Source: an uncultured virus (IMG/VR IMGVR_UViG_3300049259_000045) (taxonomy: Duplodnaviria > Heunggongvirae > Uroviricota > Caudoviricetes). Taken from it: a stretch of DNA of 64,000 bases. The notes under the pieces were generated by a model. It was not told the origin of the DNA. It saw nothing but the letters and a program-made list of their open reading frames with translations, and made no database searches. The stretch lies in IMG/VR virus record IMGVR_UViG_3300049259_000045; one strand, written 5' to 3'. Both the position numbers and the translations under genes were made by a program. Shown one piece after another: positions 1 to 61,903 of the stretch (position 1 is the first letter of the stretch; each line of letters opens with the position of its first letter).

Positions 1-1
1 G

Positions 2-601
2 GATGACCGTGTCCTGCACCGTGTACAGGTCGTATCCCGCGTCGTCGTCGTGTCCGCGCGTCGGCAGGGTAACCTCGGGGTACTCCGGGGAGGCCTCGAA
101 GATGAGCGGGGTCGGGCTGAGGTGCGCGTCGATCCGGTCGGCCTCGTATCGGGCACTGGTGTCGACCACCCACGTGGCCAGCTCCGTGATGGAGTCGCCC
201 GGAAGAGTCACCCGGACGTTCGGGTACTCGACCCAACCAGCTACGGTCCAACTCACCTTGGCCACGTGATCCGTGACGATGACGATCGGCTTGCCGGTAA
301 CCAGGAACTGCTCGATCTCCGCCGGAACGCCGTACGTGATGACGTTGGACGGCAGGAACGCCACCAAGGCGCCGGACTGGTCGAGGGCGCTCTGGTTGAT
401 GCGGGTGATGAACGGCTCAGGGGGGTTGCCGCCGGTCTCGAACGCGTCGCGAGGGTTGTACACCGCCCATCCGGAGTTCAGCAGTGCCCGGTGCAGCTTT
501 CCCTCGACCTCCATCAGCTTGACCATGTCGCTGTCCGGCTGACGAGCGAAGTCCACGGGCTGAGCCCAGTAAGCGAGACCGGTCTTGACGTTGGTAGCCA
601 T
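2..601 (-). CDS. Partial (runs off the window): nucleoside 2-deoxyribosyltransferase/dNMP N-glycosidase-like domain fused to a trimeric dUTPase-like domain
   Basis: Not in the ORF track. Manual translation from ATG at 601 (SD AGGAG) gives MATNVKTGLAYWAQPVD...VYNPRD...LVAFLPSNVITYGVPAEIEQFLVTGKPIVIV (NDT-family Gxx-E-x6-GKP motif), then LPTRGHDDDAGYDLY (dUTPase motif I AGYDL). Confidence 0.75.
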   Translation of the reverse strand, partial: MATNVKTGLAYWAQPVDFARQPDSDMVKLMEVEGKLHRALLNSGWAVYNPRDAFETGGNPPEPFITRINQSALDQSGALVAFLPSNVITYGVPAEIEQFLVTGKPIVIVTDHVAKVSWTVAGWVEYPNVRVTLPGDSITELATWVVDTSARYEADRIDAHLSPTPLIFEASPEYPEVTLPTRGHDDDAGYDLYTVQDTVI

Positions 602-623
602 CGTTCTCCTTGTTCCCGGGTTG

Positions 624-650
624 GCCGGGTGGGGCGAGTCCCCACCCGGC
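624..650. terminator. GC-rich hairpin (terminator or processing site)
   Basis: gccgggtgggg-loop-ccccacccggc inverted repeat in the intergenic gap. Confidence 0.45.
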
Positions 651-657
651 AGGTAGT

Positions 658-1098
658 TCAGTACGTTGAAGCTACAGCAGCCACGGTCTCGAAGGCGTGA
701 TGCCACGCCTGGTCGAGGCAGTAACGGCCGTTCATGCCGTTCTCAGTAACGCGTACGAACACCTGCTTGCGCGCGATGTCCGCCACCTTGACCAAGGGGA
801 ACCGTCGATCAGCCACGTAGTGCGTGACTCCCGAGATGGTCAGGGCAGTGACCAGGGACCGGGCGCTGAGATTGACTCCCAGCACCTTGGACCCCACCAC
901 CAATGCCACAGCCTGCGTGCCCACGTAACTGGCGACGTGCGCCGCACACGCCTTGCGACCTTCGGCCGAGGTGTGGCCAGCGTCGCTGTCGCGCCAGTGC
1001 TTGTTACCGGCTTGATGCTCGGATTGGACCCAGTGGTCCGCCACGTCGGCGGCAGCCCGCATCAGTACGTAGCGGGTGACTGCCTCCAGCGCCCTCAC
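658..1098 (-). CDS. DUF3307-like membrane protein
   Basis: ADHWVQ...K...AHV...THYVADRR...DQAWH His/Asp pattern with hydrophobic segments. Confidence 0.65.
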   Translation of the reverse strand: MRALEAVTRYVLMRAAADVADHWVQSEHQAGNKHWRDSDAGHTSAEGRKACAAHVASYVGTQAVALVVGSKVLGVNLSARSLVTALTISGVTHYVADRRFPLVKVADIARKQVFVRVTENGMNGRYCLDQAWHHAFETVAAVASTY

Positions 1099-1463
1099 GG
1101 CCAGCGCCCGTTGGCTCGGATGTACTGAGCCATGGCCATGTAGATCATGAGGTCCTTGAGCGTGTCGACGCTCGGCATCTTGCCGTGGATCATGGAGTCA
1201 GCGACCCGCTGCATCTTGCCGTAGGCGTAGACGAAGCACCCGAGTTCCAACGCCTCGGCAGCGTCGATCTCGCGTCCCTGACCTCGGGCGTACAACCGGC
1301 CCATCGCGGCCAGCGAGTTCGATCCGTACTCCTTGGCCTTGGCTCCGATCATCGGAGCCTCGGACTCCACCAGCTTTACCCACCACTCGGCGAACTCCAC
1401 CGGCACGTTATCCGATGTCAGAGCGCACTCGGGCGAGTTGCTGAGGTCTCCCAGGTCTACCAT
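1095..1463 (-). CDS. All-alpha NTP pyrophosphohydrolase-like protein (DUF1599/MazG-like; MazZ-type role likely)
   Basis: KAKEYG...K..R...DTLKDLMIY pattern; lies immediately downstream of purZ. Confidence 0.55.
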   Translation of the reverse strand: MVDLGDLSNSPECALTSDNVPVEFAEWWVKLVESEAPMIGAKAKEYGSNSLAAMGRLYARGQGREIDAAEALELGCFVYAYGKMQRVADSMIHGKMPSVDTLKDLMIYMAMAQYIRANGRWP

Positions 1464-1478
1464 GCTTGCTGTTCCCCC

Positions 1479-2591
1479 TTACAGGAAGATACCGGTCGCG
1501 GGACCGGTACCGATGAACTTGACTACACCGTTGGTCTCACCCATGACCTTCGAAGTGAGATCGATGATCTGACGCTGGCTGTATCGGTCGATCGCGCTCC
1601 AGGAGCTTTGATCGGCAGCCCCCGGGACCACCGAATCCACCATGGTGAGCGCGATATTGACCGACTTACCGCCGTTGGCCTCCAGTGCGTCCCGAACCAT
1701 GTCCGGGTCCCACTCGCCGACGCGTCGGACCTTGTTGGTGACCGTGGTGCGCTCCTCCGGCAGACCGAGGGCGTCCCATGTGGTCTCGCCCTTGAGCGGT
1801 CCGGAGTTGCCTGCCACGCGGATCGGTCGGACGCGAGCGGCCAACCACACCTGGAACTCGTCAACTGCGTCGTGCCACGGGCTCAACCCGGCCATGGCCA
1901 GGAAGTCGATGGCGCGACAATCCGAGCTGGTGCACTGCGGGTAGCTGCCCGCGTGTTGGCCGAGTCCGTAGCCCTGAGTCCCCTCAACGAGGACCGTGGC
2001 GCCCTCCCGCAGCCAGTTGTAGATCAGGGGAACGGTGTCGGCGCCCCCGATCGTGCTGCCGACCAGGTCCGCCGTTCGCCATACTCGGTCAGCCCGAGCG
2101 GCACCGATGCCTTTGGCGGTGGACCCCAGCCGCTTGACCAGGTCCGAGTCCTGCTCGATCTTGATGTGCTCGCCGGTCAGCACCGTGGCCGATCGGTCTA
2201 CCACCAGCCGACCGCTGACATCGTACCCAGCCAAATCGAGCTGGTCGACTTCGTGGTCGAGAACGCCCAGGTCCACCTCGGACCCAGCGGCGATGACCAG
2301 CATAGCGTCATCGTTGCTGACGGCGGCCACGGGGACGCTACGGAGCTTCCAGCGGTGGCCGTAGCCGAACGCGGGAAACGTCCGTCCTTCCGGCAGGTGG
2401 TGGTCTTCCGGCAGCTGAGCGCACCCCTGCGGGCAACGTCCGATAACGGTGTGCCCGGCATTCGGACCGGCAACTCGGACCGCCACCACAGGCGGCTGTC
2501 CCTGAGACTGTCGGGTGAGGTGATCGGCGACGGCGCCCTTACCTTCGGAGCCGAGTTGAGCACCTGCTACAACAATGAGTCTTCCACCCAC
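1479..2591 (-). CDS. purZ: N6-succino-2-amino-2'-deoxyadenylate synthase (PurA-like, PurZ0 type)
   Basis: GAQLGSEGKG (Ser in place of PurA Asp13), GPNAGHT, GSTAKGIG, EGTQG, YPQCTS, PIRVAGNSGPL, ERTTVTNKVRRVG, TMVD. Confidence 0.9.
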   Translation of the reverse strand: MGGRLIVVAGAQLGSEGKGAVADHLTRQSQGQPPVVAVRVAGPNAGHTVIGRCPQGCAQLPEDHHLPEGRTFPAFGYGHRWKLRSVPVAAVSNDDAMLVIAAGSEVDLGVLDHEVDQLDLAGYDVSGRLVVDRSATVLTGEHIKIEQDSDLVKRLGSTAKGIGAARADRVWRTADLVGSTIGGADTVPLIYNWLREGATVLVEGTQGYGLGQHAGSYPQCTSSDCRAIDFLAMAGLSPWHDAVDEFQVWLAARVRPIRVAGNSGPLKGETTWDALGLPEERTTVTNKVRRVGEWDPDMVRDALEANGGKSVNIALTMVDSVVPGAADQSSWSAIDRYSQRQIIDLTSKVMGETNGVVKFIGTGPATGIFL

Positions 2592-2624
2592 TGACGTACC
2601 TCTTCTCTGTTGTGGTACTACCCT

Positions 2625-2654
2625 ATTCTACCATGGGTGTGGTCTCCGGCACAA
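2625..2654 (-). promoter_or_regulatory. SigA/HrdB-like promoter for the purZ cluster
   Basis: TTGTGC-N18-TAGAAT. Confidence 0.6.
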
Positions 2655-2663
2655 GCCGGGCGG

Positions 2664-3152
2664 CTAGTATCCTTGACCCTTCAACTTTTGGCGTCGGATA
2701 TGATATAGCCCAAGACATTCGCTGTCTTTGGCGTGAGGTCCGTGACCATAGCTGGCCCAAGATCGTATCGGCCTGACCGGAGGACGGAACTCGATCAGTT
2801 TGTACAGCGCCTTGTGATCCACCGGTCTGTACCGACGCATCGGCACGTATGCTCGCCGACAAATGTGCTTCATGGCCCCGATCATCTCGGCAGTCTGGAA
2901 CTCCGAGCCCTGCTGCTCTCCCATCTTCCAACCGAACAGTTGGAACTTCTCGTACACTACGAGCTTGACCTGTCGACGCTGGCATGAGGTCACCAGCCGG
3001 TCGATTGTGGAATCAGGGTCAAGGTGCTCCGAGGTAAGGCACCTGGCCCCACTCCACACAGTGAGACCTACGTTGACGTCACCGGGATCGATCGACCACC
3101 ACTCCCCGGGCAGCAGATCGTCACACGCGAATCCGAGTGGGTCATCTTTCAC
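2664..3152 (-). CDS. RuvC-like Holliday junction resolvase
   Basis: SIDPG, VVYEKF, HAKDS acidic triad pattern. Confidence 0.75.
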   Translation of the reverse strand: MKDDPLGFACDDLLPGEWWSIDPGDVNVGLTVWSGARCLTSEHLDPDSTIDRLVTSCQRRQVKLVVYEKFQLFGWKMGEQQGSEFQTAEMIGAMKHICRRAYVPMRRYRPVDHKALYKLIEFRPPVRPIRSWASYGHGPHAKDSECLGLYHIRRQKLKGQGY

Positions 3153-3480
3153 GGGCTGGAAACCTCCTGTTATCGTCCGGAGGGATGAAGATGTACCGCA
3201 GAGCCTGCCCGTCCGGGGTCAACCGAATGGACGATCCTAGTCCGTTGGTCAACATGGGGGGCGCCCAGTCCGGTTGGTACAGAGCCACCTTGAGCTGAGA
3301 CAGGTCAAGAGTGGGCTGAAACACCGCCTCCAACCCGACGGACGGGTCTGGGACAGCCACCGCTCCGTCATGCATCAGGGCCCACCCGGGTAGTTCGAAT
3401 CTGTCCCCATCGAAGGGTCCGCCAACGAATTCCGCCACCTTGCCGGACAGCATCAGGCGCGCGTTGAACTCGGCTGTCAT
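3142..3480 (-). CDS. Hypothetical protein
   Basis: ATG at 3480 overlaps the upstream stop; FVGGPFDG motif. Confidence 0.55.
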   Translation of the reverse strand: MTAEFNARLMLSGKVAEFVGGPFDGDRFELPGWALMHDGAVAVPDPSVGLEAVFQPTLDLSQLKVALYQPDWAPPMLTNGLGSSIRLTPDGQALRYIFIPPDDNRRFPARER

Positions 3481-4070
3481 ACTTCCACCCCCAGTTGGTC
3501 GAACACGTCCCGAGCCCACAGTGCGTCAACCAAGGCGGTGTGTCCCTCGCCCTTCTTGGGCGGTTCGACGCCGATCCGGCGAGAAATCGAGTACGAATCC
3601 CAGGGCAACGTTACGGATTCGCCACGCCCGAGCAGCACGCCAGCGGCCAGCTCCAGCGCGTTTACTACCCGGTAATGCCATGGAGCCTGTCCGAGCAGTT
3701 CCCGCAGGAACGAAGCGTCGAACGCCGTGTTGGATCCGATCAGAATGGCCTTCATCAGCCGCCACGTGATGTCTTCGATCGCCTCGGCTCGGGTCATCGG
3801 GTAGGCTGCGCCGTCCACGATCCACGCGGCTTCGGAACCCTCCGGCACCATGAACCGCTCATGGAACCGGTTGATCTCCAGCGCTTTCGGCTCGGCCCTG
3901 TCGAGGTAGTGCGGACGGATCTGCCAGACCCCCACCAGCTCGGGGTTGGTGTAGAGCGACATGCGCTTGACGCGCTGCACAATGGCGATTTCCCAGGTTT
4001 CGTGAACCTTGGGGATAAGACCGGTGGTCTCCACATCGGCGAAGTCGAAGGTTATGATGTCAGTAGACAT
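3477..4070 (-). CDS. DnaQ-like (DEDDh) 3'-5' exonuclease
   Basis: DVETTGL, SNTAFD, HTALVDA; start reassigned to ATG 4070 (TGATG coupling). Confidence 0.85.
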   Translation of the reverse strand: MSTDIITFDFADVETTGLIPKVHETWEIAIVQRVKRMSLYTNPELVGVWQIRPHYLDRAEPKALEINRFHERFMVPEGSEAAWIVDGAAYPMTRAEAIEDITWRLMKAILIGSNTAFDASFLRELLGQAPWHYRVVNALELAAGVLLGRGESVTLPWDSYSISRRIGVEPPKKGEGHTALVDALWARDVFDQLGVEV

Positions 4071-4246
4071 CAGGAGTCTCCCGTCAGATAGGGGTTCATT
4101 GCGCTGCCCAACCGAGGGCGGTCGGGCCGGTAAATCTGGTGACACTCGCATCCGCAAACGCAACAGTCTTCGCTGCGTCGGCAGTGCCCAGGGCAACCCT
4201 CGTGATTGCCCTGGGCACAATCCGGAATCAAAGGCCGGTCGGCCAA
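4070..4246 (-). CDS. Small Cys/His-rich protein (58 aa)
   Basis: Manual translation MADRPLIPDCAQGNHEGCPGHCRRSEDCCVCGCECHQ...; fills the gap between polymerase and DnaQ and is coupled to DnaQ. Confidence 0.55.
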   Translation of the reverse strand: MADRPLIPDCAQGNHEGCPGHCRRSEDCCVCGCECHQIYRPDRPRLGSAMNPYLTGDS

Positions 4247-4249
4247 CGA

Positions 4250-6601
4250 TCAGCCTTTCTCGTCCCAGCGGTCGGGAGAAATCCCCCAGTTCATGTGCCG
4301 CTTCCGGACCGAGAAGTATTGTTCGAAGCACTTCTGACCGATCTCGGACACTAGCTGAGCCTCCTTGTGCCCCTTCTCGTCGTCGGTGTGCTCGGTAACC
4401 AACGAGTCGTGAATCTGGAGGAGCAGGACGCCCGGAAGCTGGCGCTCGATCTCCAGCATCCAGTAGATCATAGCACGGGCCAAGTTGCCCTGAATGATCT
4501 GGTTGACCGCGCTATTGGTCTTCTCACTCAGGCCGTACACTCGACGCCAGCCGTCCAGCATCGTCAGGTAGCCGCAGCCGCCCTCCCAGCGGGTGACCTT
4601 GTGGGTAGCCTGGTCGGTCAGCCTCTTGAATTCGGGATAGGTCTTGAAGAAGCTGGCGATAGCCGCCTTAGTGTCCGCCATCGAGATGGGAATGCCGGAC
4701 GCTGCTTCGATTTGGGTCATCAGGGCGTAGACACCGCCACCGTACAGGATGCCGAACGTACCACGCTTGGCCGCGTTCCGGAGGTCGTAGAACCGGGGAT
4801 GGTCCTTGTCGACACCGAACAGGGCCATAGCGTTCATCGCGTGGAGGTCAGCGCCAGCGTCGAGGGCATCCCACAGCTTAGTCGAGTTGGCAATGATGGT
4901 GACCACGCGCATCTCGCCGGTGGCGAGGTCGTGCTCGGCCTGGAAGCGGCCAGACCCGGGACGGGGTCCGATGAGCTTCCGGACGGGCACCGTGTCCTCC
5001 GGGATGAGTCCGCCGTGCGGGATGGCCTGAGCCTGCCAGCGGCCCACCGCGAGGCGCCCGGACACCGTTCCTCCGGCCGCGTCTGTGGCGCGGTCGAAAT
5101 CGCTCTTGGTCTGCTTATACCGGGTCCGAATCCGGCCGTCCTTGCCGGTTCGCATGGCCCAACCGGTGTACCACTTCGAGTCGGAGTTCCGCATCTTGGT
5201 CCACTGCATCATCTCCTTGGCCCAAGGTCGGTTCTCCGCCACCAGCTTCCGCAGCTCGGGGATGTCGAGTTTCGGCTGGCCGGTCTTCTCGGTGCGTTCG
5301 GTCGGTTCCAGCCCCATTCCGTTCTTGCCGTTGCATCCTGAGCAGGAGGCAGAGCACGAAGTCGGGTACGTAACCCGCTCGGCCCAGGGGTCGCCGTCTT
5401 CCGGTGACGGCATCTCGATCTGGCTGGCCTCCGGGCAGACCGGCCCGAAGTAGAACCTCTTGGCCTGCATGACCTTGGAGGGGTCGAACGGCATTGTGTA
5501 CGACAGCCGGTGGTGACGATCCCGGAGCTTGGCGCCCTCGGCCAGAGAGTCCTCGACAGCGTACTCGACGCCTCGACGCTCCATGCGGTAGAGGGTGGTC
5601 CGCAGCTCCATCTCGGTGCGGAGCAGTTCCCAGAATCCGGGCAACGTCTCGCCTGCTTCGGCGGATCCGACCTGGTAGTCCTTGAGCCGATAGGTGAGGT
5701 TGGTGTCCTTGGCCGCGTACCGGCCCATTGCGCCGCACCACGGCAACAGGTCGTAGCGTTTGGTCATCTTGACGCCGATCTTGGCCAGCTCCAGTTTCAG
5801 CTCTTCGGCCTCGGTGCCCTCGTCCTCCCCCCACAGACGCTTGGCGGTCTTCTTGAGGGCTGCAGGCTCGATCGGGTCGATCAGCTGCTTTTGGATGACC
5901 ATGGTGCACCAGATCTGGCGACGCCGAACAGCCGGGTTGATCAGAGGTTCGAGCGTCGGCTCCATCATATGCAGCCGTTGGGGCTTGTTCAGTTCCCAGG
6001 TGCCGGGCTCGCTGTCCGGGTCCCAAGCTCCCCAACCATCCCAGATGTCCGGGTTGCCGCCAGCCCCTGCACGTAGTCCGGCTGCAAACTCCGGCATGTC
6101 GTGAATCGAGTTGTGCATGGTCAGCGAGTCGCGCCGGTCCAACCACGCAATCAGGTTGGCGTAGTCGGTCGCGGGCAGGTTGGGCATGGCCAGCTCGGGC
6201 GTGACCTCGTAGCCCAGCACCTTCGACATAGCGACCAAGATCCGGTCCTGCTCGGCCTGGTCAATAACGCCAAACACGGCGTGGCCGGTGTCCGGGTCTT
6301 CGGTCGGCTTACCGGGCTTGCCCAGAACAGGGCCCTGATCGAACGGCCACGCGAAGTCGAGCAGCTCGCCCGGCTCTACGCTCTTGATGTTGCCATGAGC
6401 GTCGTATCGAGTCACTGGCTGACGGAAGCTGACCGACACCACGGAGATCCGAGCCTCGGGCTGCGGCGGATTGTTGCCGGACTTGAAGGGCTCTCCGTCC
6501 TTGTAAAGGCCGGACCCCTCGGTGTCCACGCTGACATCCCAACCGGGCGGAAGTTCCGGCAGCAGGTCGTCGCCAACCTTGGTGAGTTGGGTAATCGGCA
6601 T
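4250..6601 (-). CDS. Family A DNA polymerase (candidate DpoZ)
   Basis: Exo motifs DTEGSGL, HNSIHD, YAAKD; GTVSGRL; motif A DLATGEMR; motif B RNAAKRGTFGILYGGG; motif C QIHD. Confidence 0.9.
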   Translation of the reverse strand: MPITQLTKVGDDLLPELPPGWDVSVDTEGSGLYKDGEPFKSGNNPPQPEARISVVSVSFRQPVTRYDAHGNIKSVEPGELLDFAWPFDQGPVLGKPGKPTEDPDTGHAVFGVIDQAEQDRILVAMSKVLGYEVTPELAMPNLPATDYANLIAWLDRRDSLTMHNSIHDMPEFAAGLRAGAGGNPDIWDGWGAWDPDSEPGTWELNKPQRLHMMEPTLEPLINPAVRRRQIWCTMVIQKQLIDPIEPAALKKTAKRLWGEDEGTEAEELKLELAKIGVKMTKRYDLLPWCGAMGRYAAKDTNLTYRLKDYQVGSAEAGETLPGFWELLRTEMELRTTLYRMERRGVEYAVEDSLAEGAKLRDRHHRLSYTMPFDPSKVMQAKRFYFGPVCPEASQIEMPSPEDGDPWAERVTYPTSCSASCSGCNGKNGMGLEPTERTEKTGQPKLDIPELRKLVAENRPWAKEMMQWTKMRNSDSKWYTGWAMRTGKDGRIRTRYKQTKSDFDRATDAAGGTVSGRLAVGRWQAQAIPHGGLIPEDTVPVRKLIGPRPGSGRFQAEHDLATGEMRVVTIIANSTKLWDALDAGADLHAMNAMALFGVDKDHPRFYDLRNAAKRGTFGILYGGGVYALMTQIEAASGIPISMADTKAAIASFFKTYPEFKRLTDQATHKVTRWEGGCGYLTMLDGWRRVYGLSEKTNSAVNQIIQGNLARAMIYWMLEIERQLPGVLLLQIHDSLVTEHTDDEKGHKEAQLVSEIGQKCFEQYFSVRKRHMNWGISPDRWDEKG

Positions 6602-20397: not shown

Positions 20398-20892
20398 CTA
20401 CCATACAGCTTGCTCCGGGCGCAAGTAGCTGCGGGAGCCGTCTCGACGGTATGTCAGTACAGGAATGTTGGCCTCGTCAGCTCGGCGTATGCAGTCTTCC
20501 GTTCCTGTTGACGGAGTCTGCCACAGGAACGCCAAACACGCTATGGGCATCAGATCGACCATGTGTTGATTACGGTAGTTACCCTGAGCCGGACAGATGT
20601 CGCCCTCGCCCCAGGTGTTCGGGCGCCGGTGGCCAGCACTGCAGCTCGGTAGACATAGGCTGCTCCACTTGGCTGGCACCCGATGCAATCGAACGCCCTC
20701 ATAGTAACGTCCGATTGCCCAGCGGTCGGCTATCGCGTCTGCACCCTTACGGTTATGCCCATGTAGAACGCGCATTTCCGTGAAGGGTCCCGTCACGATC
20801 AACGCTAGGTACGCCTCCCACAAAGCGTTATCTATCATGGACCGGTCAGCCCAATTTCGACTGCCGGTGACAAGTACGAGGGCAGAACTCAT
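20398..20892 (-). CDS. SLOG-family (YspA/DUF2493-like) protein
   Basis: VLVTGSRNW, HG..KGADAIA..WA, RNQHMVD, STGTEDCIRRA. Confidence 0.75.
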   Translation of the reverse strand: MSSALVLVTGSRNWADRSMIDNALWEAYLALIVTGPFTEMRVLHGHNRKGADAIADRWAIGRYYEGVRLHRVPAKWSSLCLPSCSAGHRRPNTWGEGDICPAQGNYRNQHMVDLMPIACLAFLWQTPSTGTEDCIRRADEANIPVLTYRRDGSRSYLRPEQAVW

Positions 20893-21827
20893 CAGTGACG
20901 CTCGAATCTTTGCTCCCAACCGGTGTCCCGGAGGAACGTGACCTCTCGGTCTTCCCCGAGCTTCCGGCCGGTCAGGCACGCCTCTCGCATCCCGCAGAAC
21001 CTCTTGCAACGCTCAGCGTCCGGCTGGCGGGTGTGCTTGTTCGCTTTGGAGTACAGGTAGCGCGCTGTCTCCAAGGTCTCCCGCGCGATCGTGGCCAGCT
21101 CGGGGTCAGTGCGATTGGTCGGAACTCGCGCGAACCGGCCTTCCATCGGCTGGGGCTTGGGCTGGGCTCCCGGCTTCTCCCCAGCGGCCTTGCGGATGTG
21201 CCAGTCTGCCACCGCGTCCGGGTAGTCGCCCTTGTTCCGAGTGGTCCGGGCGCCGTTGTACAGGCAGCCGAAGATGTCTTTGCCGAGGCTGTTGAGCGCC
21301 CATTTGTAGATACCGAACTGGTCGTGCAAGTCGAGATCCTGGGTGTCTCCCGGCAAGTTGGCTGCGGTCTTGTGGTCCCATACCCACCGCCGACCGCTGG
21401 ACCGATGTTGTGCGACCAGGTCCACCCCGCCTTTGAGGTTGAATCCGGACAGGCGTCCGGCCGCAGTCCGCAGTGGTACTTCGAACCGGTACTCGACAGC
21501 CAGGATGCGCCACTCGTCGTCGGGCCCATACCGCTCGATGTACCCCTCCACGATCCACCGGACGAGGTCCACGGTTTCGGCGTCGCGGCCGGTGGTCTCG
21601 AAGTCGGCGAACAACTGGTCAAGGCTGGACTGAGCAGCGGCCTGGTTGCCGGGGTCCAACATCAGAGACCGATACCAGGTCTCCATGGCGAGGTGAAACA
21701 TGGACCCCTTGGCCAATGGGCCGGTCTCGTCGTTTGGCTTGGTCCACCTCTCCTTATAGGTTCGCAGATGGTGGTGGGGGCACTGTCGCCCACGCTGAAT
21801 CTCGGACCAGCTTACGGTAGTAGCCAC
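20892..21827 (-). CDS. PD-(D/E)XK (RecB/Cas4-like) exonuclease
   Basis: QCP, GSMFH, AVEYRF, GGVDLV, WDHKT, QFGIY, C..FC....C; GTG start after AAGGAG. Confidence 0.8.
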   Translation of the reverse strand: MATTVSWSEIQRGRQCPHHHLRTYKERWTKPNDETGPLAKGSMFHLAMETWYRSLMLDPGNQAAAQSSLDQLFADFETTGRDAETVDLVRWIVEGYIERYGPDDEWRILAVEYRFEVPLRTAAGRLSGFNLKGGVDLVAQHRSSGRRWVWDHKTAANLPGDTQDLDLHDQFGIYKWALNSLGKDIFGCLYNGARTTRNKGDYPDAVADWHIRKAAGEKPGAQPKPQPMEGRFARVPTNRTDPELATIARETLETARYLYSKANKHTRQPDAERCKRFCGMREACLTGRKLGEDREVTFLRDTGWEQRFERH

Positions 21828-51004: not shown

Positions 51005-51217
51005 GGCGTTTAGATCGTCAGGCTCTAGAACCAAGGGCGCCTCGCCAAGCTTCAAGCGAGGCGCCCAACGGGCTCCCGGACCACGGAGAACGTAGCCGAA
51101 ATCGGTCGTGACCGAGTCCCACTTGAGGGTCACATGCGCCCCCAGATCCTCCAGCTCGTTCATCAGTTCCGCTGCTCTGGTCAAGGCGTCCACGATACGT
51201 TCGCGCTGTTCACTCAC
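51002..51217 (-). CDS. Hypothetical protein
   Basis: GTGA coupling to the portal stop. Confidence 0.55.
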   Translation of the reverse strand: MSEQRERIVDALTRAAELMNELEDLGAHVTLKWDSVTTDFGYVLRGPGARWAPRLKLGEAPLVLEPDDLNA

Positions 51218-54200
51218 CGGACGTCCTTCCAAATTTGGTCGACCACTCTGTGCCACTCAGCCATCAACTCCGGCCGGATTGCCGGGTTTTCTGCGGCGTG
51301 CCATGAGTCCCACCAAGCCAGAGCCTCGACTTGGTCACCATCGGGGTCGTCCGGGTTGTTTACCTCATACCGGCCGTCGAATACCGGCAGGTCGGATTCG
51401 TGTTCTATCTGATACACAAACCCCGCGTAAACGCCGTTGTAAGTAAGCCACTCGCCGATCTTGACCGCGCTGTCCGGGAAGTTCATCCCGGTTTCCTCGG
51501 ACCATTCTCGCAGAGCTGCAGCCTCGGGCGTCTCGCCCTCCTCCAAGCAGCCGCCGGGAAACTCCCAGAACCCCGACGCGGGATCGGTCTCGTCATAGGC
51601 TCGTTGGAGCATGAGCAGCCGGTCAGTGTCCTTGGCATGGACGCACACACCGGCGGCTACCGGTCCTACCGACTTGGACTGATACGAGTACTCGCTGCCG
51701 CCGGTACCCTCAGTACGTTGATACGAATGGGTTTCATTCCACGGGCCGTCCTCGGTGGGAACCTTGGCCAGGTACGCTCGAACAGGCTTGCTGACCATTC
51801 GGGACGCCAGCGCTCGATGGTGTCCATCGACTACCATGGCCTTGTCGTGGCCAGGCTTCTTGACCAACAGTATGGGCCGAACGTCCTCGCCGGTTAGCAG
51901 CTTCTTGGCAAATTTGGCTACCTTACCTGCCTCGTGATCAGCAGCCCACGAACCAGCGTCCTCGAAATCGATGTCGTCGGCAGTAACCTCGATCGGACCC
52001 TGCCACTTGACGAATGCCATCCAGACTATGGCGTGTGCGGGGAAGTCACCCGCCATAGTCTGAAATGCTCCGTGTGCGGCATCGGTCATCCGAGGCGCCA
52101 TCTTGTCCGACACTGATTCGTCGTCGTCGTGACTGATCGACCCGTCAGCGTGCTGCCAGCCGTTCTCAGTGTCGTACGCGACCGGAATTCCGCATGGGCA
52201 CATCACGGAGTGCTTGGCGTGACTCTGACCCAGACCGCAGAGGGCGCAAGCCCCCTGACCGTTGTCCTTGAACTCGTGCAGCACGTCCTGGGCGTCTCCG
52301 GACGTTCCGTCGATGCCAGCCGCTTGCCGATCAGCGTCGGACTTGACGGATGACGGGCTGCAGTGTGGGCAACCCTTGTCGTGTACCGCCGGACTGCGAA
52401 ACACCTCGTCGCACTTGGGGCTGTCAATCTCGGACGGATACAAGCTGCCGCCAGCGTCGCACCGATAGCACTCGTGGCCGGTAGCGTGCTCTCCCGACCC
52501 TCCGCAGCAATCGCAGCCGGTCAGAGTAGCGGACTTGTCAGCTCCGTAGATACCGTTGACGTCGTGGGCGGACAGGAACGGACCGCCACCGCCAGCCGGA
52601 CCGCCCTGCGGACCCTCGTCCGCCTCGGTCCAGCGCTCTTGCCCGTTAGTGTCGACAATTCGACGCATCGCCAGCCTGGCTGCTGCCTTGTATTCCATGC
52701 CGCTCTTAATTCGAGACGACAGGATGCGCAAGTCAGAGAAGGTTAGGTTACGTCGATTCCATTCGGAAACGGTCAGACCCTTGGACAGATGACGAGCAGC
52801 CGCCTCCATTTCGGAGTAGACCATCCGGTACAGAGCGTTGTTGGACATCTCGCTGTGCACTTGCTCAGCGCTGATGTCGGAGGGTTCAACACTGATGCCT
52901 TGCCAGCCGCCGTTTTGGCGTGCGCGTTGGTTGCCCATATCGGCAAGCTGACGGCGGATGTCGTCCCGGGTCTGAGCTTGCGACCTGGACGGTTCCGGCA
53001 CAGTAGCCAAGAACCGCTGACGAGCGTCCTCAGCCTGATTGCGCCGAGCCGTGATGTCGCTCAACTGCTGCTGGTAATACCCGACCTCAGCGTCATCGTC
53101 CCGAAGAGTGTTGGTGCCCTCTTCTACCGGATCACCCTCCTTGATGTACTCCAAGCTGCACTTGCAGTTGGGGCCACCGAGGCAAACATCTCCGAAATCA
53201 CCATCACCAGGCCAGCCGGGCAGGCTGTGGAAGGTGTAGGTGATTCCGTCCCGAGCTATGCAGGCTCCGCAGTGCTCCGACGCTCCGAGGTGCCACACGA
53301 TCTGATAGCTACCGTCGGCCTGGAGGGTACGGCCGTACGCGATGTTGTACGCGCCGACCAGCGTCCGACCGTACAGGTCGAGTCGGCTGGATAGACGAGA
53401 TTGCGCCAAGGCCCCACCGGTGGCAAGATCCTTGAACAGCCCCATCAAGAACGGGCGTTGACTCTCGGCTCGGGAAGACGCTTCGCTGTCCACGTAGGAA
53501 GACAGGTCATCAAAGCCTGAATCGTCGTCTCCCTCTCCGTCGTCCTTGCGGACCCCGGTTATTCCGTGATCTCGACGGGCGTCACCGGCTGCCGCCCTCA
53601 TTACCTGCCGGTATCCGGTGGCAAGGTGCTGAACGCCTTCATTCAAGCCGGTGGCAGCGTCGATCTCGCCCTCTTGGTACTGGTCCACAATCCGCCGCAG
53701 ACCGAGGGTAACGCGTTTGGCGGACGCATCCACGCGGTTCTGACGCCGCGCTTGGTGCCGTGCTGCCCCCGCGTGCACGGGGCGCCTGGCCTTCTGTGTG
53801 TCCGTCTTGACGTCCGGTGGGGTCTTCTGCGACGTCTCGTGCCCCTCGGCGGCCTCGTGCCCGGGGGACTGCTGCGAGCCCCCCGGAGACCCTCCTCCTG
53901 GCTTCTTGTCGTCCGACTCTTGACCCGGCTCGGGCGGCTTTCCACCGTTCGCAGCGAGTTGCTGCGTGGCCTGCAAGCTGGCCTGACGGGTTGCACTGGC
54001 CTCGGCCAGCGTGACGAATCCGGTCGCTGGGGTGGCCCATCCAGGATCGGAAGTCTCGGGCAGGCCCCAAGGAGGAAGGTTCAGCTTCTCGCGACCTTCG
54101 TCAATCGAGCGCAGACCAGAGTTGACCTGGTTGACAACGAGCGTGGTGGTGGTTGCCTCGTCGTCTTCCTCGATCTGACCCTCGAACACAAACCGCATGT

Positions 54201-55623
54201 CGTCTTGGCCGCACGCGTCTTGCAGTACCATGTCGAAAATGTCGCTGAGGTACTGCAGCGTAGGCTTGGTGGCCTTACGGTCGGACATCGTGCTGGTCAT
54301 TTTGGACATCTGGTTGGCCGCACCACTGGACATCGTGGTGCTGACCTTAGGCGCAATACCCAGTTCCATCGGCATTACGTCGAATGCCATGCAGACCTGG
54401 TTCATTACGACTTCATCGAACGCATCCGCAATCTGCGGAGGGCGCTGCGGGTCCACCTTGCTGCCGGACGGCAGGACCAAGATCTTGTGCTTCCAAGCCG
54501 GGTCGCCCGCCACCGCGTTGAGCGCGTCCTGCAGTTCGCGGATCTGGTTCGGAGTCATGTTGGCGTTCGAGTCACCAGGCGAGATGTACACCGCAGGGAC
54601 CGTGCCCTCACGGAAGTAATCAAGCTGATAACCCTGCTTCTGCAACCCGGCCATCACGGGAACCAGCGCACGCTCGATCGGCGGAAATCCGTAAGGAGTC
54701 CACCGGCGAGGGGTCATCGGCAGGTAGAGAAGCTGATCCGTCTGGAACCTGGACACCTCGGCTCCGGTCAGACCCCCGTACTCCAGGTCTCGATCCGTCA
54801 CCAGTGTCATCAAGTCCACGCGAGGGACCCCGTACAGGTACTGCTGATAAGCCACGGCCGGAGGACGAGGGCGCTCGCCGTGGAGCCCAAGGAGCGGCCG
54901 GATGGTGGAGCCGGACAGCAGAGACAGCGAATCGAAGTCGGACCCCATCAGGCCACGTCCGCGACCCTTGGCCCACTTCTTGCGGAACAGCACCGACAGC
55001 GCATCGAACACGAACACCTCTTCGAGCAACGCGTCGATAAAAGTGTTCCAAGAGAAGTAGTCGGAGTCCGGCTTCTTGAAGAACTTCATCGCCTGAGCGC
55101 GTCGCTCGCCGAAGTCCCGCATAGCCACGCGGTCTCCGCGCATGGCCTTCGACGCTTCCTTGGTAGGCATGATGTCCCACTCCAGCGACCGGATTTCAGA
55201 CTTCCGGAGCTGGATAGCGGCTCGGGCCACCGAGTACACATCGGCCAGCGTCCGCAGCGTGTTGAAGTCCGCCAGCTTGATGCCCTCGGAACCAGGCTGC
55301 CCTACCGGAAGGTTCCACCCAACCTCGTACTGGAACAGCCGAGGTTCCGGCAGGTCCGAATCCTCGGGGGGAGCGTCCACCGGAACAGGCAAGATCGGGC
55401 TGAACGGCCCGAATGCTCCGTCAGTGAACGTCTGCGCCGGTCGCGGGAGGTACGATCGATAGGCGTTGGACCAAGTTCCCGTTGCCCCCCCGGAGTCAAG
55501 CTCTCTGGCCAGCGGAGAAATTTGAGAGGTGGAGATGCCGGGTAGCCCCTGGTTGGCCGGGCTCGGGCTCTGTGCGCCCGGTATGGCCTTCATGCTACTG
55601 ATGATGGAACCGCGTGGAGCCAC
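51214..55623 (-). CDS. Portal protein fused to MuF-like, Zn-binding, ParB-like and NUDIX domains
   Basis: Portal YGFPPIE, YFREGTVP; MuF HCGAC...PGDG...CLGGPNCKC; ParB PILLV...VDGHHR; Nudix box GGCLEEGETPEAAALREWSEETG. Confidence 0.85.
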   Translation of the reverse strand: MAPRGSIISSMKAIPGAQSPSPANQGLPGISTSQISPLARELDSGGATGTWSNAYRSYLPRPAQTFTDGAFGPFSPILPVPVDAPPEDSDLPEPRLFQYEVGWNLPVGQPGSEGIKLADFNTLRTLADVYSVARAAIQLRKSEIRSLEWDIMPTKEASKAMRGDRVAMRDFGERRAQAMKFFKKPDSDYFSWNTFIDALLEEVFVFDALSVLFRKKWAKGRGRGLMGSDFDSLSLLSGSTIRPLLGLHGERPRPPAVAYQQYLYGVPRVDLMTLVTDRDLEYGGLTGAEVSRFQTDQLLYLPMTPRRWTPYGFPPIERALVPVMAGLQKQGYQLDYFREGTVPAVYISPGDSNANMTPNQIRELQDALNAVAGDPAWKHKILVLPSGSKVDPQRPPQIADAFDEVVMNQVCMAFDVMPMELGIAPKVSTTMSSGAANQMSKMTSTMSDRKATKPTLQYLSDIFDMVLQDACGQDDMRFVFEGQIEEDDEATTTTLVVNQVNSGLRSIDEGREKLNLPPWGLPETSDPGWATPATGFVTLAEASATRQASLQATQQLAANGGKPPEPGQESDDKKPGGGSPGGSQQSPGHEAAEGHETSQKTPPDVKTDTQKARRPVHAGAARHQARRQNRVDASAKRVTLGLRRIVDQYQEGEIDAATGLNEGVQHLATGYRQVMRAAAGDARRDHGITGVRKDDGEGDDDSGFDDLSSYVDSEASSRAESQRPFLMGLFKDLATGGALAQSRLSSRLDLYGRTLVGAYNIAYGRTLQADGSYQIVWHLGASEHCGACIARDGITYTFHSLPGWPGDGDFGDVCLGGPNCKCSLEYIKEGDPVEEGTNTLRDDDAEVGYYQQQLSDITARRNQAEDARQRFLATVPEPSRSQAQTRDDIRRQLADMGNQRARQNGGWQGISVEPSDISAEQVHSEMSNNALYRMVYSEMEAAARHLSKGLTVSEWNRRNLTFSDLRILSSRIKSGMEYKAAARLAMRRIVDTNGQERWTEADEGPQGGPAGGGGPFLSAHDVNGIYGADKSATLTGCDCCGGSGEHATGHECYRCDAGGSLYPSEIDSPKCDEVFRSPAVHDKGCPHCSPSSVKSDADRQAAGIDGTSGDAQDVLHEFKDNGQGACALCGLGQSHAKHSVMCPCGIPVAYDTENGWQHADGSISHDDDESVSDKMAPRMTDAAHGAFQTMAGDFPAHAIVWMAFVKWQGPIEVTADDIDFEDAGSWAADHEAGKVAKFAKKLLTGEDVRPILLVKKPGHDKAMVVDGHHRALASRMVSKPVRAYLAKVPTEDGPWNETHSYQRTEGTGGSEYSYQSKSVGPVAAGVCVHAKDTDRLLMLQRAYDETDPASGFWEFPGGCLEEGETPEAAALREWSEETGMNFPDSAVKIGEWLTYNGVYAGFVYQIEHESDLPVFDGRYEVNNPDDPDGDQVEALAWWDSWHAAENPAIRPELMAEWHRVVDQIWKDVR

Positions 55624-61095: not shown

Positions 61096-61830
61096 CTACC
61101 CGTTGAACAGGTAGTGGAACAGCGGACCACCGATCGAGTAGTCGTGCACATCCGAGCCGTTGGCCTCTTCACGGGCGTACTTCACCGCTCGTTGCAGTTC
61201 CCCGATCCGACTCAGCAGCTCGTTGACGTGATTCAACGGAGTAGCGCCGGACGCCTTGATCGTGGTCCAGTAGCCGACGGAGATGTCCTCCATCCACACG
61301 TCGACTTGAGCGGGGTGGCGTTCGGTGGCCTCGGCCTTGACGTGGTTGCGGGGGACTTTCTTGCTCCGCACGGTACGCACCGGCTCGGTCGTCCAGACAC
61401 CCAGCTCCTGGTTGAACGACCACTGTTCCGCCGGGTCCAACGTGGGGATCTTGGAGATCAGCGTCCGGAGGTCGGTCAGCTTCTTCTCCAAGAACAGCAG
61501 ATACGTCACCGGAACGTCCGTGGCCAGGGTCCGCGCGCCGACCACGATGTCCGCCTTGGCGGTGGTGTTGGCTATGTCCTTGGTCAATGTGACATCCAGG
61601 AGCTGGGCCAGCCCCTCGGCGACGTTCTGCAGGACCTGCGACACGCTGAGCTGTACCCGAGTCGATTCGGGCGGAAGCTGCTCGCCTTCCTCGTCCTTCG
61701 GCTGGTACGTCCGCGAGATTCCGGCCAGCAGGTTGTTGCGCTGCAAATCGTGGTACGCCTTGGTGACGACACTCTCGGCCGTGGACTTAACGCCCTTCTC
61801 GACCGCGATGATCTGATTGAGCTTGGCCAC
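61096..61830 (-). CDS. Uncharacterised helical protein (recalled as DUF7873-like)
   Basis: MAKLNQIIAVEKGVKS...LAGISRTYQPKDEEGEQLPPESTRVQ...HPAQV...AREEAN; GTG start after AGGAG. Confidence 0.75.
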   Translation of the reverse strand: MAKLNQIIAVEKGVKSTAESVVTKAYHDLQRNNLLAGISRTYQPKDEEGEQLPPESTRVQLSVSQVLQNVAEGLAQLLDVTLTKDIANTTAKADIVVGARTLATDVPVTYLLFLEKKLTDLRTLISKIPTLDPAEQWSFNQELGVWTTEPVRTVRSKKVPRNHVKAEATERHPAQVDVWMEDISVGYWTTIKASGATPLNHVNELLSRIGELQRAVKYAREEANGSDVHDYSIGGPLFHYLFNG

Positions 61831-61873
61831 GCTCGTGCTCCTACTGAGATTGTGGGATTGCTCTGTGGAGGGC

Positions 61874-61903
61874 ATCCTACCATGGCAGGGGCTGGCGTGT
61901 CTA
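61874..61903 (-). promoter_or_regulatory. SigA/HrdB-like promoter
   Basis: TAGACA-N18-TAGGAT. Confidence 0.6.

Follow-up and report, generated by a model that had tools for sequence, protein, structure and literature searches.

A probable DmtZ-DutZ fusion gene in the purZ0 cluster of an uncultured Z-DNA virus

How does a virus that appears to build its DNA with 2-aminoadenine (Z) remove deoxyadenosine triphosphate (dATP) when no HD-type enzyme is seen in its purZ region? This question is raised by the left edge of a 64,000-nucleotide (nt) stretch of DNA, referred to here as the window, from the uncultured virus IMGVR_UViG_3300049259_000045, where a truncated minus-strand gene lies in a purZ cluster. 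A reading of the sequence made without database searches (the sequence-only reading) had proposed that this gene, missed by the track of open reading frames (ORFs), joins a domain like nucleoside deoxyribosyltransferase (NDT) or DNPH1 to a dUTPase and would exclude adenine within a single polypeptide. Enzymes of this kind have been characterised from the Arthrobacter phage Wayne (DmtZ-DutZ, ALY10777.1) and, as split proteins, from the Gordonia phage Ghobes (Poubanne et al., Nucleic Acids Res 2026, PMC12884076). The ORF at the window edge very probably encodes the N-terminal 200 residues of a DmtZ-DutZ fusion of 306 amino acids (aa) in a PurZ0-type Z-DNA actinophage. Indeed, an NDT/DNPH1-like domain fused to a dUTPase within the purZ cluster is borne out by the ORF itself, the domains of the full-length protein, the predicted fold of its N-terminal part and the presence of a PurZ0-type gene two genes upstream.

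The gene appears as a minus-strand ORF spanning 2..706, open at the window edge (base 2), once open-ended ORFs are allowed. The default ORF listing omits ORFs running off an end, which explains why the track had missed it. The ATG at 601..599 is the credible start: it leaves 200 aa visible, lies 56 nt past the stop of the preceding minus-strand gene (658..1098) and has ahead of it the stretch GAACAAGGAGAACG, with AAGGAG separated from the ATG by a 4-nt spacer. An alternative start, the GTG at 706, was rejected, as it would overlap that preceding gene. The motifs quoted in the sequence-only reading are all found in this frame, GVPAEIE at residues 91-97, GKP at residues 103-105 and AGYDL at residues 188-192. 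The window thus viewed alone holds the whole N-terminal domain but just ~24-30 residues of the dUTPase, with its first motif. On this 200-aa fragment Pfam returns 0 families at E<=0.01 and PHROGs returns phrog_135 'dUTPase' (E 8.1e-06) on residues 170-200, matching the first 30 residues of the family. The remainder of the gene could be recovered as protein, but its DNA could not. Indeed, a 306-aa entry of the protein collection (P0003) is 100% identical over all 200 visible residues and is the full-length form of the window's own protein, whereas the viral, metagenome and genome contig collections have no exact copy of a 50-base word taken at the window start.

On P0003 the dUTPase family PF00692 covers residues 177-305 with E 1.6e-23 and 83.3 bits against a cut-off of 22. 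In an alignment of 15 sequences the stretches DAGYDL, GRSS, GIID..YTG, G.R.AQ and RG..GFGS.G are invariant, and we take these five to be the five dUTPase motifs. A profile of 15 full-length relatives searched against PDB sequences finds solved dUTPases at E 6e-30. When the C-terminal 136 aa are used as a tblastn query, the dUTPases of PurZ0 phages reach 45-57% identity and 115-137 bits (57% and 137 bits for Keanu, 45-49% and 115-124 bits for Arthrobacter phages), while canonical phage dUTPases give at most 73 bits among the matches listed, in a spread listing of 1706 records. On these sequence scores the DutZ domain appears closest to the dUTPases of PurZ0 phages, and for PurZ, DutZ and DmtZ alike such statements on clades express gaps in identity and score, not trees. 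In the published work DutZ forms a monophyletic group (PMC12884076).

The N-terminal domain was modelled with AlphaFold2 (residues 1-170, 15-row alignment) as an alpha/beta domain of five strands, with a predicted local distance difference test (pLDDT) of 84.4 and a predicted template modelling score of 0.80. In a Foldseek search of the PDB the best match of this model is the CMP N-glycosidase MilB (4jel; E 7.4e-06, template modelling score (TM) 0.60/0.66), and ranks 1-20 hold MilB, the Enterococcus faecalis V583 structure 7m5h, the purine 2'-deoxyribosyltransferase (PDT) 1s2d and several NDTs, with human DNPH1 following from rank 32. Altogether 104 matches are found at E<=0.001, including flavodoxin-like reductases and a TIR domain at lower TM. 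This is the same set of matches as reported for Wayne (PMC12884076).

By BLASTP the visible 200 aa align with Wayne DmtZ-DutZ at 32% identity over 193 columns (E 6e-19); for Ghobes DmtZ the identity is 38%, over 80 aa (E 8e-14). In Ghobes numbering, the published roles are those of a triad Tyr6/Asn77/Glu103, of Asp12 as the contact of the adenine 6-amino group, of Pro57 as a transferase-type residue and of Trp124 as a lid. The Ghobes DmtZ mutants Y6A, D12A/R and E103A are reported as inactive, and N77D and P57A as impaired (PMC12884076). All six residues are kept in the window protein, where Y11, D17, P50, N69, E95 and W118 correspond to Ghobes Y6, D12, P57, N77, E103 and W124 and are invariant across five aligned proteins. 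Furthermore, the triad equivalents Y11, N69 and E95 are also invariant in the 15-sequence alignment. A phmmer search with the N-terminal domain over 1.84 billion representatives yields 301 proteins with E<=1e-3, of which 26 reach E<=1e-10. Among the best 150 of these 301, 124 are 255-360 aa long, 126 carry PF00692 and 70 reach PF05014 at E<=1e-3, and the D, G and E of the catalytic core are invariant across all 150 distant representatives. Since 126 of the 150 carry PF00692, the fusion is the common form of the DmtZ-type domain in public data.

The purZ gene of the cluster was assessed by the mark of PurZ0, namely a PurA fold in which Ser replaces the catalytic Asp13. Its P-loop reads GSEGKG, and its Ser15 is likewise found in Keanu, Wayne, Ghobes and Zanella. 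The window PurZ is 44-57% identical to actinophage PurZ, including that of Gordonia phage Archimedes, whose PurZ0 has been solved, with 56% to the PurZ of the Keanu group, and just 27-32% identical to the phiVC8, Alteromonas and Acinetobacter PurZ. As judged from sequence, the gene fits the PurZ0 subgroup (ATP-preferring). Genes for a polymerase and an exonuclease-like protein lie upstream of it. At PurZ residues ~45-85 (window about 2340-2460, minus strand) the window and Keanu proteins share an insertion of ~25-30 residues with a Cys-x3-Cys (CPQGC / CPNDC) and His residues, which is absent from the PurZ0 of Wayne, Ghobes and Zanella and possibly forms a loop for metal binding peculiar to the Hiyaa-like lineage.

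That no HD protein is visible in the window is confirmed by a Pfam scan, in which PF12917, PF13023 and PF01966 gave 0 matches among 120 window ORF translations (7 + 55 + 58; E<=1e-3, one set at E<=0.01). PF12917 was also found in 0/3 complete related genomes (Keanu, Wayne and Ghobes), while the same search matched 6/14 control genomes. In Keanu, Preamble, Wayne and Ghobes the homologous gene lies 1-3 genes downstream of a gene annotated 'PurA-like adenylosuccinate synthetase' or purZ. The metagenome loci described below gave no statistics on co-occurrence. Among published PurZ0 genomes, dutZ is present in 98/98 and dmtZ in 85, fused to dutZ in 77/85 (PMC12884076).

Against GenBank phages, tblastn with the 200 aa finds 114 records (105 Arthrobacter, 5 Streptomyces and 4 Gordonia phages), and the matches listed all fall under genes annotated as deoxyuridine triphosphatase, dUTPase or, in two RefSeq rows, dCTP deaminase. 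The closest isolates are the Hiyaavirus phages of Streptomyces (Keanu, Hiyaa, Galactica and Spocter), whose gp67 'deoxyuridine triphosphatase' shares 34-40% identity with the fusion over 200 aa and 57% with the DutZ domain. Given that a megablast of window positions 1-4000 against GenBank phages matched a 279-bp purZ stretch in Galactica alone (80%), the phage is new to this set at the DNA level.

The window protein and the Wayne enzyme share the same order of an NDT-like N-terminus, a linker and a trimeric-type dUTPase C-terminus, with 306 aa each, and the same DmtZ residues. In both cases the gene lies a few genes after purZ0, and DatZ is absent from the Wayne genome as from the window. However, in Wayne DUF5664-1 directly follows purZ0, where the window has an unrelated 122-aa protein (protein X), and the Wayne genome measures 44 kb as compared with a parent contig of ~92 kb with Hiyaa-like gene content. 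Ghobes DmtZ (AOE44404.1) and DutZ (AOE44406.1) display the same catalytic residues and belong to the same pathway, but are encoded by two separate genes, and this DmtZ has an insertion of ~20 residues absent from the window protein. Ghobes DmtZ is also reported to hydrolyse dZMP (PMC12884076). With DNPH1/Rcl, MilB and bacterial NDTs the N-terminal domain shares the alpha/beta fold (Foldseek E 7e-06 to 3e-04, TM 0.5-0.68) and the Glu nucleophile with its Tyr, whereas identity is 12-20% and Asn takes the place of the usual triad Asp. The published DmtZ further differs from these enzymes in being dAMP-specific and in transferring deoxyribose-5-phosphate to 2-aminoadenine (PMC12884076).

A pattern-based metagenome scan with P0003 gave 80 loci, in which tblastn finds the dUTPase in 80/80, PurZ together with protein X in 1/80 (L005) and the DmtZ domain in 0/80, so that no extra fused relatives were obtained. 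The related cluster of locus L005 (5089-7728 of a 64-kb metagenome contig) comprises polA, purZ, protein X, an ORF of 153 aa and a stand-alone dutZ that has no dmtZ next to it. Its DutZ is 62% identical to that of the window, and the cluster exemplifies PurZ0 loci of the dmtZ-less type.

For the published enzymes, DutZ converts dATP, dGTP and dUTP to their monophosphates, DmtZ either releases adenine from dAMP or moves the deoxyribose-5-phosphate to the Z base, and the full Wayne fusion turns dATP mainly into adenine (PMC12884076). Wayne-like dZ phages have also been associated, independently, with NDT and with a 'dUTPase/NDT dual protein' in a 2025 preprint (10.1101/2025.10.22.683976). We infer the activity and the substrate range of the window protein by homology to the Wayne enzyme. 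In the proposed mechanism its DutZ domain would hydrolyse dATP to dAMP and pyrophosphate, and would also convert dGTP to dGMP, the PurZ substrate, and dUTP to dUMP. In the DmtZ domain, Glu95 would act as the nucleophile, positioned by Tyr11 and Asn69, while Asp17 would read the adenine 6-amino group; the glycosidic bond of dAMP would be cleaved and adenine freed. The acceptor of the deoxyribose-5-phosphate would then be water (hydrolase) or free 2-aminoadenine, which would yield dZMP (transferase). Together with the PurZ0 encoded two genes upstream, the fusion would remove dATP irreversibly and feed dZTP synthesis, and it would stand in for the HD enzyme DatZ and for MazZ of PurZ-type phages. 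Indeed, DatZ (HD, YfbR-like, PF12917) and MazZ of PurZ-type phages such as S-2L and phiVC8 fulfil the same task, dATP removal and dGMP supply, but their folds are unrelated, and DatZ yields dA and triphosphate. The idea that the dUTPase fold converts dATP to dAMP and that the NDT domain removes or exchanges the adenine is thus supported by measurements on the homologous Wayne fusion and the split Ghobes enzymes, by the residues kept and by the PurZ0 context. The same holds for an adenine-exclusion route in a single polypeptide, although this had already been demonstrated in print (Nucleic Acids Res, February 2026).

Several points weigh against this assignment. For the last 106 residues of P0003, and so for the greater part of the dUTPase domain, the protein collection is the source, not the window DNA. 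With just 32% identity to the characterised Wayne enzyme, the activity of the window protein is a predicted one. As for profile searches, in which the dUTPase half of the proposed fusion was recovered, the NDT model PF05014 (Nuc_deoxyrib_tr) stays under its cut-off on P0003 (residues 36-118, E 0.15, 12.6 bits vs 28.8). The characterised members fail this model too, the Wayne protein giving no match and Ghobes DmtZ just 18.3 bits, and the N-terminal domain is confirmed as NDT-like by its predicted fold, its Foldseek matches and its homology to Wayne and Ghobes DmtZ. At two modelled positions of the phosphate pocket the window protein is unlike Ghobes, with Phe18 for Gln13 and Tyr90 for Val98; Wayne carries Phe and Trp there. 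The parent contig measures 91,734 bases, as taken from the longest contig on record for protein X (P0167), and the ~28 kb lying outside the window could carry a datZ. Finally, the kcat of the Wayne fusion is highest on dUTP, 16.4 vs 5.9 s-1 for dATP (Table 1, PMC12884076). Since the Wayne enzyme keeps this strong dUTPase activity, ordinary dUTPase duty is probably part of the function, and adenine exclusion would be one job of the enzyme, not its sole job.

The last point can be taken further, to an ordinary dUTPase that merely keeps uracil out of DNA and whose N-terminal extension is catalytically dead or has a regulatory or structural role. The annotation of the GenBank relatives as 'deoxyuridine triphosphatase' and the PF05014 score below threshold lean the same way as the dUTPase activity of Wayne. 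However, Asp17 and Trp118 are kept along with the whole NDT catalytic triad, the core D, G and E do not vary across the 150 representatives, the gene is tightly linked to purZ0 and the isolated N-terminal domain of Wayne makes adenine from dAMP (PMC12884076), and we regard a dead extension as very improbable. An active NDT domain could instead work on nucleosides, as a type I purine 2'-deoxyribosyltransferase (dA + Z -> dZ + A) uncoupled from the dAMP of the dUTPase domain. Indeed, dA/dZ exchange has been measured for NDT-M2, a metagenomic enzyme from predicted dZ contigs (10.1101/2025.10.22.683976), and true nucleoside NDTs are among the Foldseek matches at similar scores. Such an activity is very improbable here in the light of the Wayne fusion homologue and Ghobes DmtZ, which both act on dAMP (PMC12884076), of the best structural matches, which are the nucleotide N-glycosidases MilB, and of the fusion to a dAMP-producing enzyme, which argues for channelling. 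As to the fusion itself, split forms do exist, in Ghobes and as stand-alone dutZ in L005, Zanella, Olihed and Parvaparticeps, and an assembly or frameshift artefact could have joined two genes that are separate as in Ghobes. Yet the ORF runs unbroken through the domain junction in the window (residues 160-200), and all 15 relatives (P0003 and 14 others) are 287-311 aa long with PF00692, in line with the 126 fused representatives among 150; the probability of an artefact is close to nil.

The DmtZ-DutZ fusion of the window adds a new divergent copy to a family with just two characterised sources. Such a copy is useful for mapping the residues that are truly constrained, and it is a possible alternative scaffold for deoxyribose-5-phosphate transferase chemistry. 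With its adenine-exclusion route already published, the enzyme opens no new question, and the potential for discovery is confined to protein X beside purZ0.

Table. Features at the left end of the window, with position, strand and basis of each assignment
Feature	Position	Strand	Basis
dmtZ-dutZ fusion gene, 5' two-thirds, codons 1-200 of 306	2..601	-	ORF and match to P0003
DutZ (trimeric dUTPase-type) domain start, residues 177-200, with DAGYDL	2..73	-	phrog_135; PF00692 on P0003
DmtZ (NDT/DNPH1-like) domain, residues 1-160 (about 165)	122..601	-	residue mapping, AlphaFold2, Foldseek
Shine-Dalgarno region AAGGAG	602..615	-	read from sequence
Predicted membrane protein of 146 aa, encoded between protein X and dmtZ-dutZ	658..1098	-	phrog_2470 'membrane protein' E 4.3e-17; no Pfam family
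122-aa four-helix protein X (P0167)	1095..1463	-	directly downstream of purZ0
PurZ0-type 2-aminoadenylosuccinate synthetase	1479..2591	-	PF00709 E 4e-31; phrog_1211 '2-aminooxy adenylosuccinate synthetase' E 9.5e-76
3'-5' exonuclease-like protein, adjoining polymerase gene	3477..4331	-	PF00929 E 8.6e-4 (below cut-off); phrog_192 E 8e-19
Family A DNA polymerase, candidate DpoZ-1-type	4250..6601	-	PF00476 E 3.4e-32

Protein X has homologues directly behind purZ in Ghobes (gp51, E 2e-21) and in Keanu (gp66, E 2e-22). In Keanu the match lies in the C-terminal part of a 450-aa protein, as against a 122-aa protein in the window. Protein X, or a longer protein ending in it, stands immediately after purZ0 in 7/7 loci (window, Keanu, Ghobes, Parvaparticeps, Olihed, Zanella and L005), whereas in the Arthrobacter PurZ0 phages (Wayne and Preamble) this slot is taken by the DUF5664-1 dATP/dGTP diphosphohydrolase. 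By tblastn, X is found in 31 phage records (18 Microbacterium, 6 Gordonia, 5 Streptomyces, 1 Curtobacterium and 1 Micrococcus) and in 0 of Arthrobacter, and the 200 records returned by a PurZ search include 105 Arthrobacter, 18 Microbacterium, 6 Gordonia and 5 Streptomyces phages. The X counts equal the PurZ-bearing counts for Microbacterium, Gordonia and Streptomyces, as compared by genus and on several shared records rather than on every one. A term search of the main text of PMC12884076 finds no mention of X. Tentatively, X may belong to the PurZ0 Z-DNA module as a standing component not yet described.

An invariant K..YGSNSLA motif marks the X family, and X is predicted with confidence to fold into four helices (pLDDT 85.1). 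Pfam gives no family for the sequence itself at E<=1 and scattered single matches for 26 members at E<=10, and the X profile gives 0 matches to PDB sequences even at E<=10. A relationship to DUF5664 was tried and rejected, hhalign giving a probability of 0.08 against a 30-sequence DUF5664 alignment; BLASTP finds no similarity between X and either the Wayne DUF5664 protein or Ghobes gp52. Foldseek returns nothing at E<=0.001, with iMazG (2q73) at a probability of 0.41. In a wide VIA-align search the best Z score is 6.7, for two-helix matches; S-2L MazZ (7ody) reaches Z 6.2 (root-mean-square deviation (rmsd) 2.6, 64 aligned residues) and the mouse structure 2a3q Z 5.9 (rmsd 3.3, 77 aligned), scores which lie under the informative level for helical bundles. 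In the Atlas, X falls into unnamed viral clusters alone, one of which has DUF1599 on 14% of its members. The models hint weakly at a fold likeness to MazG-like enzymes, including S-2L MazZ. X could replace DUF5664-1 without being homologous to it, for instance as a highly divergent MazG/MazZ-like dNTP pyrophosphatase, or else act as a partner or regulator of PurZ0.

Elsewhere in the window, a 1469-aa ORF (51217-55623, minus strand) carries a phage portal domain at residues 277-515 (PF04860) and, towards its C-terminus, a NUDIX hydrolase domain (residues 1322-1444; PF00293, E 3.3e-17), and a nucleotide pyrophosphatase tethered to the portal is unusual for a Z-DNA phage. A 203-aa ORF (20401-21009, minus strand) carries the SLOG-family YAcAr domain PF10686 (E 5.9e-12), a nucleotide-binding Rossmann-like domain, and a 259-aa ORF (61099-61875, minus strand) matches DUF7873 very strongly over its full length (E 1.7e-104).

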